Assembly: GCF_001677475.2 (NCBI RefSeq)
Contig: NZ_CP015229.1
Strand: one strand, 5' to 3'
Length of the DNA: 64,000 nucleotides
DNA from: Escherichia coli
GTDB taxonomy: Bacteria; Pseudomonadota; Gammaproteobacteria; Enterobacterales; Enterobacteriaceae
Below are positions 39,448-40,278 of the stretch, in pieces; the first letter of the stretch is position 1; each line of letters starts with the position of its first letter. The notes beneath the pieces are model-generated. The model was not told the origin of the DNA and ran no database searches. It saw only the letters and a program-made list of their open reading frames with translations. The position numbers and the translations under genes are program-made.

Positions 39448-40278
39448 ATGTTTGTTCCGTTTCTCATTATGTTGCGCGAAGGACTTGAAGCCGCGCTGAT
39501 TGTCAGTTTGATTGCCAGCTATCTTAAGCGTACCCAGCGAGGCCGATGGATTGGTGTGATGTGGATTGGCGTGCTGTTTGCCGCTGCGTTGTGCCTGGGC
39601 TTGGGTATCTTCATTAACGAAACCACCGGCGAATTTCCGCAAAAAGAACAGGAACTGTTTGAAGGTATCGTGGCGGTGATCGCCGTGGTGATCCTTACCT
39701 GGATGGTTTTCTGGATGCGCAAAGTGTCGCGCAACGTCAAAGTGCAACTGGAACAGGCAGTCGATAGCGCATTGCAGCGTGGAAATCATCATGGCTGGGC
39801 GCTGGTGATGATGGTCTTTTTTGCCGTTGCAAGGGAAGGGCTGGAGTCGGTCTTTTTCCTGCTGGCGGCATTTCAACAAGATGTCGGGATCTGGCCGCCG
39901 CTGGGTGCAATGCTCGGTCTTGCTACAGCCGTGGTGCTCGGCTTCCTGCTCTACTGGGGCGGTATTCGCCTCAATCTTGGTGCATTTTTTAAATGGACCA
40001 GCCTGTTTATTCTCTTCGTCGCCGCAGGGCTGGCAGCTGGTGCTATTCGCGCATTTCATGAAGCCGGATTGTGGAACCACTTTCAGGAAATCGCCTTCGA
40101 TATGAGCGCGGTGCTGTCAACTCACTCGCTGTTTGGCACGCTGATGGAAGGGATTTTTGGCTATCAGGAAGCGCCAAGTGTCAGCGAAGTCGCCGTCTGG
40201 TTTATTTATCTCATCCCGGCGCTGGTGGCATTTGCCCTGCCACCACGCGCAGGGGCGACAGCGTCTCGCTCTGCGTAA
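39448..40278 (+). CDS. efeU: Ferrous iron permease EfeU (FTR1 family), intact
   Basis: Single continuous ORF 39439..40278 giving MFVPFLIMLREGLEAALIVSL... with two REGLE motifs. Confidence 0.85.
   Translation: MFVPFLIMLREGLEAALIVSLIASYLKRTQRGRWIGVMWIGVLFAAALCLGLGIFINETTGEFPQKEQELFEGIVAVIAVVILTWMVFWMRKVSRNVKVQLEQAVDSALQRGNHHGWALVMMVFFAVAREGLESVFFLLAAFQQDVGIWPPLGAMLGLATAVVLGFLLYWGGIRLNLGAFFKWTSLFILFVAAGLAAGAIRAFHEAGLWNHFQEIAFDMSAVLSTHSLFGTLMEGIFGYQEAPSVSEVAVWFIYLIPALVAFALPPRAGATASRSA

Follow-up and report, generated by a model that had tools for sequence, protein, structure and literature searches.

The efeU gene, formerly named ycdN, stands first in the efeU-efeO-efeB operon of Escherichia coli, and the copy found in the 64,000-nucleotide stretch of E. 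coli DNA analysed here (the window) raises the question of whether its source strain holds the gene whole, with a working iron uptake system, or in the broken form known from strain K-12. In passages of PMC2808357, PMC7549933 and PMC3577903 that cite Grosse 2006 and Cao 2007, EfeUOB of MG1655 is given as non-functional through a frameshift in efeU; passages of the same three papers and of PMC9174327 credit O157:H7 with a complete efeU and a functional EfeUOB. The O157:H7 study is that of Cao et al. 2007 (Mol Microbiol 65:857), whose title names regulation by CpxAR, and for E. coli Nissle 1917 the title of Grosse et al. 2006 (Mol Microbiol 62:120) names EfeU a transporter for the uptake of ferrous iron. 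In this report, we compare the efeU locus of the window with those of K-12, O157:H7 and strain WP4-S18-ESBL-07 (WP4-S18). The finding of an intact efeU is in itself ordinary and already known, both the K-12 frameshift and the function of the intact operon having been published in 2006-2007.

The efeU gene is a single uninterrupted reading frame

The ORF listing gives efeU as one uninterrupted frame on the + strand, from 39439 to 40278, of 279 aa when read from GTG. Two in-frame starts are present, the ATG at 39448, which yields 276 aa, and the alternative GTG at 39439, which yields 279 aa; the ATG is the RefSeq-annotated start of the identical efeU in WP4-S18, and a Shine-Dalgarno-like element precedes it (Table 1). 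Three family profiles matched above their curated cutoffs: the Pfam FTR1 model (PF03239) covered residues 1-275 of 276 (E 1.8e-89, 300.3 bits against a cutoff of 25.3), the NCBIfam EfeU equivalog NF041756 matched end to end (330.5 bits, cutoff 255) and TIGR00145 scored 349.9 bits (cutoff 303.8). Taken as ORF, motif and family match together, the assignment of EfeU is far above chance level. The operon occupies its usual chromosomal spot, with putP on one side and phoH on the other. A PDB sequence search with EfeU matched no solved structure.

Two further open frames at the locus were set aside. A 215-aa antisense ORF (39433-40080) was put down to the shadow frames that commonly accompany GC-rich membrane-protein genes, and an 88-aa ORF on the + strand (39170-39436), which had no Pfam match and overlaps the promoter and the Fur-like box, was treated as a chance ORF.

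Table 1. Features of the window discussed in the text, in order of position
Feature	Position	Strand	Remarks
cspA thermoregulator	7430..7852	+	Rfam, 162 bits
naRNA4	18536..18613	-	Rfam, 60.9 bits, barely over threshold
447-aa hypothetical gene	36916..38259	-	putP-efeU interval; in O157:H7 and WP4-S18, not in K-12
Fur-box-like element, TAATGATAATTGCTATCA	39372..39389	+	putative; promoter segment common to K-12 and O157:H7
CpxR-box-like element, GCAAA-N5-GTAAA	39396..39410	-	putative; Fur-like box on one side, efeU start on the other
Shine-Dalgarno-like AAGGG	39435..39439	+	8 nt 5' of the efeU ATG at 39448
efeU CDS	39448..40278	+	276 codons plus stop; inner-membrane FTR1/OFeT-family iron permease
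First REGLE (RExxE) motif	39475..39489	+	EfeU residues 10-14
GG dinucleotide, efeU codon 36 (GGT)	39553..39554	+	both G's in the window, one in K-12
Second REGLE (RExxE) motif	39832..39846	+	EfeU residues 129-133
efeO	40336..41463	+	375 aa; periplasmic, cupredoxin plus M75 (imelysin); signal-peptide-like N-terminus
efeB	41469..42740	+	423 aa; Tat-exported DyP-type haem peroxidase/deferrochelatase
Ysr251 (antisense sRNA family)	43851..44044	-	Rfam, 192.8 bits; opposite the phoH 3' end
pgaA (PGA exopolysaccharide export porin)	47859..50282	-	in-frame TAG at 48027-48029
Winged-helix protein gene	54535..55347	-	open, 270 aa; copy in 2012C-4221 a pseudogene with an internal stop
SDR oxidoreductase gene	56028..56819	+	open, 263 aa; copy in 2012C-4221 a frameshifted pseudogene

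EfeU retains the conserved residues of its family

Both REGLE motifs are present in the frame. The REGLE motif is described as a conserved iron-binding element of Ftr1-type permeases in passages of a paper on fungal Ftr1 (PMC8065604); a literature search on EfeU together with the REGLE motif found nothing. A word-indexed homologue search returned relatives that were too close for a conservation analysis, the best 120 all being at least 80% identical, and a library clustered at 50% identity was used instead, from which the window protein was aligned with 40 full-length homologues at 32-53% identity to it. Across these 41 sequences, R10 and E14 of the first motif are invariant and E11 and G12 are conserved in at least 97%, and in the second motif R129, E130 and E133 are invariant and G131 occurs in 40 of the 41. 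All ten invariant columns of the family (R10, E14, G41, A79, M86, R129, E130, E133, G157 and F181) are kept in the window, and the majority residue is found at 46 of the 49 columns conserved at 80% or more. The three departures, L21, V123 and I188, are conservative, and they are also present in the EfeU of O157:H7 (WP_000497942.1), because that protein differs from the window protein at residue 44 only, with L44 in place of F44. Column 44 is variable across the family, where A, L, S, I, G, F or V is found. The window EfeU is identical to RefSeq WP_000497935.1.

These results bear directly on the sequence-only reading of this DNA, which had described a single intact efeU ORF of 276-279 aa containing both REGLE motifs. 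The ORF and its two motifs are as it described them, and the loss of essential residues within a continuous frame, which it had named as the observation that would count against it, did not appear, as all ten invariant residues and 46 of the 49 conserved ones are in place.

A Kyte-Doolittle scan of EfeU gave six strong hydrophobic segments, at about residues 1-24, 32-60, 68-94, 146-173, 177-204 and 242-266, and the segment that carries the second REGLE motif (around residue 129) fell below the threshold of this simple scan; the topology reported in PMC9174327 has seven transmembrane helices. Six hydrophobic segments and the motif-bearing one would together fit that seven-helix topology, although this is not proof of it.

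K-12 differs by a single deleted base in efeU

The locus of K-12 is orthologous to that of the window, with operon DNA 98.1% identical (61 mismatches over efeUOB, about 1.9%) and with efeO and efeB intact in both. The efeU of K-12 C3026, in contrast, is an 830-bp CDS that RefSeq flags as a pseudogene ("frameshifted"). A four-way DNA alignment placed the K-12 deletion in the GG at efeU nt 106-107 (39553-39554 of the window), of which K-12 has kept a single G. The K-12 protein consequently reads W34-I35-V36 and stops at codon 37, and the remainder of the gene continues in another frame. The 1-bp deletion in efeU codon 36, which marks the K-12 lineage, is absent from the window. In addition, K-12 is without the 447-aa gene upstream of the operon, and its sequence beyond about -135 of efeU is unrelated to that of the window.

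The sequence-only reading had stated that efeU is a frameshifted pseudogene in K-12 and that EfeUOB is inactive there, and an alignment to K-12 efeU was proposed as a check. That alignment bears the statement on efeU out, K-12 lacking one G at 39553-39554 where the frame of the window is whole, and the RefSeq flag and the papers that cite the original work agree with it.

We then consider how widely the two alleles are distributed. When the locus was compared by megablast with 5,426 complete genomes of E. coli, 5,417 were matched, with K-12 derivatives aligning over one base less. A 59-mer across the K-12 deletion had an exact match in 368 complete genomes, out of 5,388-5,417 matching, and among the 60 matches listed all recognisable strain names were those of K-12 or laboratory derivatives, including MG1655, DH5alpha, C600, J53, DH1, NCM3722 and RR1. 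The intact 60-mer of the window was found exactly in 3,843 complete genomes, and most of the others differ from it by a substitution. Of the finished E. coli genomes, about 93% are thus without the K-12 deletion: intact efeU is the norm in E. coli and K-12 is the exception. This distribution qualifies one further claim of the earlier reading, that intact efeU is a marker that the strain is not K-12. The claim is correct, as the deletion is absent, and intact efeU does exclude K-12; as a marker, however, it is valid yet weak and nearly uninformative, because the intact gene is the default state of the species. The window can be separated from K-12 independently, by the 61 operon mismatches and by the additional 447-aa gene. 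Conversely, K-12 is atypical at efeU, and iron-uptake phenotypes of K-12 should not be transferred to wild strains.

The operon is complete and closely resembles that of O157:H7

The three genes of the tripartite system, efeU, efeO and efeB, lie in this order on one strand, with efeO and efeB both at full length and 1-10 residues away from their counterparts in three reference strains. EfeO contains the Pfam Cupredoxin_1 and Peptidase_M75 domains, scores 769 bits against the NCBIfam EfeO model, matches the solved structure 7wgu (EfeO) in the PDB at E 2.5e-229 and carries an HRLE (HxxE) motif at residue 217. It is 1-3 aa away from the versions of K-12, O157:H7 and WP4-S18, and residue 292 is L in the window and Q in all three. 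EfeB contains Dyp_perox_N and Dyp_perox_C (Pfam), scores 616.9 bits against TIGR01412 (cutoff 428) and matches the solved E. coli YcdB/EfeB structures 2y4f (YcdB) and 3o72; its twin-arginine motif SRRRLL occupies residues 13-18, and D235, H329 and R347 are present. At residues 38, 85 and 271 the window has P, P and V, where the reference strains have T, A and A.

The closest functional parallel is the EfeUOB (YcdNOB) system of O157:H7 studied by Cao 2007, which has the same operon, the same gene order and the same chromosomal site, with the same 447-aa gene in the putP-efeU interval. The two operons are 98.0% identical in DNA, and the proteins are 1 aa (EfeU), 2 aa (EfeO) and 6 aa (EfeB) apart; outside the coding sequence, they differ by one substitution in the Fur-like box and by a distal upstream region that is 90.7% identical. 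For Nissle 1917, which has an intact EfeU permease, the likeness is drawn from the title of Grosse et al. 2006.

The proximal promoter is conserved and the distal upstream region is divergent

The last 135 bp or so before the efeU ATG is common to the window, K-12 and O157:H7. O157:H7 has the same CpxR-like box, ribosome-binding site and proximal promoter, apart from one base in the Fur-like box. That element, which reads TAATGATAAT(T/C)GCTATCA across strains at 39372-39389, has T at position 39382 in the window and C in K-12, O157:H7 and WP4-S18. The label of Fur box is one that we presume from its likeness to the GATAATGATAATCATTATC consensus, and the element is putative. The neighbouring element at 39396-39410 is identical in K-12, O157:H7 and WP4-S18; its likeness to GTAAA-N5-GTAAA, the consensus, together with the reported regulation by CpxAR, makes it a candidate CpxR box. 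A sigma-70 consensus scan of 38260-43100, run together with terminators, found no promoter directly 5' of efeU, and as its overall counts were at chance level it was uninformative.

Between the 447-aa gene and efeU lies a 1.19-kb AT-rich intergenic region (38260-39447), which is 90.7% identical to that of O157:H7 with 10 gaps, compared with 98.0% for the operon. Because of this divergence, the distal regulatory input of the window could differ from that of O157:H7.

A working acid-induced Fe(II) uptake system is the best reading

Positions 39448-40278 of the window are best read as a wild-type, uninterrupted efeU belonging to a working Fe(II) uptake system that is repressed by Fur and induced by acid, a reading to which we give a probability of roughly 0.9 on the strength of comparison with characterized systems. 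It is preferred because the intact EfeU is nearly identical to the functional O157:H7 protein, because efeO and efeB are intact and because the proximal promoter is conserved. The sequence-only reading had likewise held that the strain probably has a working acid-inducible Fe(II) uptake system; given an EfeU one residue away from that of O157:H7 and intact efeO and efeB, this was a reasonable expectation.

In the proposed mechanism, EfeU would act as a multi-pass inner-membrane permease of the Ftr1/OFeT type, in which the two RExxE motifs would bind iron and pass it through, and EfeO and EfeB would handle iron in the periplasm, so that the three proteins jointly would import Fe(II) at low pH. 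Fur-Fe(II) would repress efeUOB, and control by CpxAR would raise its expression in acid. We infer from these parts that in the source strain the operon is probably expressed under acid, iron-poor conditions and imports iron. The published picture, as far as it is given in the sources cited here, runs along the same lines: according to PMC9174327 and the title of Cao 2007, Fe(II) uptake by E. coli EfeUOB is stimulated by low pH and the system is regulated by CpxAR; low-pH Fe(II) uptake with Fur repression and CpxAR acid control is described for O157:H7 and Nissle 1917; and PMC9174327 describes EfeU as an Ftr1p-like OFeT permease, EfeB as a Tat-exported haem peroxidase and EfeO as Sec-exported and required for uptake. 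For the periplasmic chemistry, the differing proposals given in passages of PMC3577903 and PMC9174327 include Fe(II) oxidation by EfeB or EfeO, hand-over of Fe(III) and extraction of haem iron. The source strain thus has the standard low-pH ferrous uptake complement that K-12 is without.

More distant systems share the general plan. EfeU is a homologue of yeast Ftr1p with membrane-embedded iron-binding REGLE motifs; the yeast permease, however, is partnered by the multicopper ferroxidase Fet3p, whereas the E. coli partners are EfeO (cupredoxin plus M75) and the haem peroxidase EfeB. EfeUOB (YwbLMN) of B. subtilis and FepABC of S. aureus are also tripartite, with a permease, a binding protein and a DyP peroxidase, although they are distant in sequence from the window and Fe(III) and haem-iron roles are emphasised there.

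Three other readings of the locus were weighed. That the integrity of efeU is an artefact of sequencing or assembly at a short G run, the true gene being frameshifted as in K-12, has a chance close to nil. The window and K-12 do differ at this site by a single base in a GG dinucleotide, but a run of two bases is not error-prone, the independent draft GCA_002516285.1 matches the window at 100% identity for 7,272 bp across the operon and the intact 60-mer recurs exactly in the thousands of complete genomes counted above; moreover, the window is not a mis-sequenced K-12, because 61 other operon positions differ. We consider it unlikely, though less so, that the operon is functional with a main role other than the import of free Fe(II), either the extraction of periplasmic haem iron, with EfeB as deferrochelatase, or the uptake of Fe(III) through EfeO and EfeU, roles that have been put forward for EfeUOB systems elsewhere. 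Passages of PMC3577903 report that EfeUOB of O157:H7 enables the use of periplasmic haem iron, and passages of PMC9174327 consider, for B. subtilis, a minimal complex of EfeUO that takes up Fe(III) and present the role of EfeO as debated; the E. coli system, however, is described in the literature as transporting Fe(II) at low pH (Cao 2007, as cited in PMC9174327), and either role would need an intact EfeU all the same, so that there is no conflict with the finding.

The remaining possibility is that the frame is intact and the system nevertheless silent or impaired in this lineage, through the base at 39382, the distal upstream region, Q292L in EfeO or T38P, A85P and A271V in EfeB. These differences in the box, the upstream region and the two periplasmic proteins are real, and the nonsense codon that inactivates pgaA in the same window shows that genes do decay in the lineage. 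We regard such impairment as very unlikely, however, as the sequence of EfeU is that of a widespread RefSeq protein, both EfeO and EfeB score far over their equivalog cutoffs, the catalytic and Tat residues of EfeB are present and, as described above, the elements proximal to efeU are those of O157:H7; in addition, the exact EfeB occurs in 67 blocks of a public assembly collection, which fits a maintained gene. The working system thus remains the preferred reading. Within it, there is a slender chance that the lineage differences (T at 39382, the distal upstream region, L292 of EfeO and P38, P85 and V271 of EfeB) alter iron or pH regulation or the periplasmic chemistry; if regulation were altered, partial escape from Fur repression would be one possible outcome.

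Source lineage and neighbouring genes

Gene order is fully that of E. coli over the whole window (1-64000). In all three thirds of the window, however, the closest complete genomes of the species reach only 97.6-98.2% identity (over 18-20-kb stretches), and the 99.5% match of efeU to WP4-S18 is a local patch inside a 23-kb alignment at 97.7%. The sequence is a natural one all the same: the exact EfeB recurs in the public assembly collection as noted above, and identical draft assemblies (GCA_002516285.1 and GCA_019141265.1) exist. The source lineage thus seems to be poorly represented among finished E. coli genomes.

For the 447-aa protein, an NCBIfam search gave no match, and Pfam gave only a hit below threshold (E 0.0013), to the N-terminal domain of PipB2, a secreted effector of Salmonella. 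Three repeats of about 60 aa (…W[AC]…ARNYL…G…) can be made out by eye in the C-terminal half of the 447-aa protein.

The TAG codon in pgaA corresponds to TGG (Trp) in strain 2012C-4221. The beta-barrel is thereby shortened by its last 55 or so residues, and downstream the same frame continues to the authentic C-terminus (...FDMTFRF). As the truncated PgaA of 751 aa is called on 6 public contigs, it is real and belongs to a small clade. Export of PGA may have been lost, and with it biofilm that depends on PGA; pgaB, pgaC and pgaD are seemingly intact.

The three RNA elements in Table 1 (Ysr251, the cspA thermoregulator and naRNA4) all score over their Rfam gathering thresholds. In the part of the window that holds the winged-helix and SDR oxidoreductase genes, the closest complete genome is that of 2012C-4221, and both genes, open in the window, carry pseudogene annotations there.
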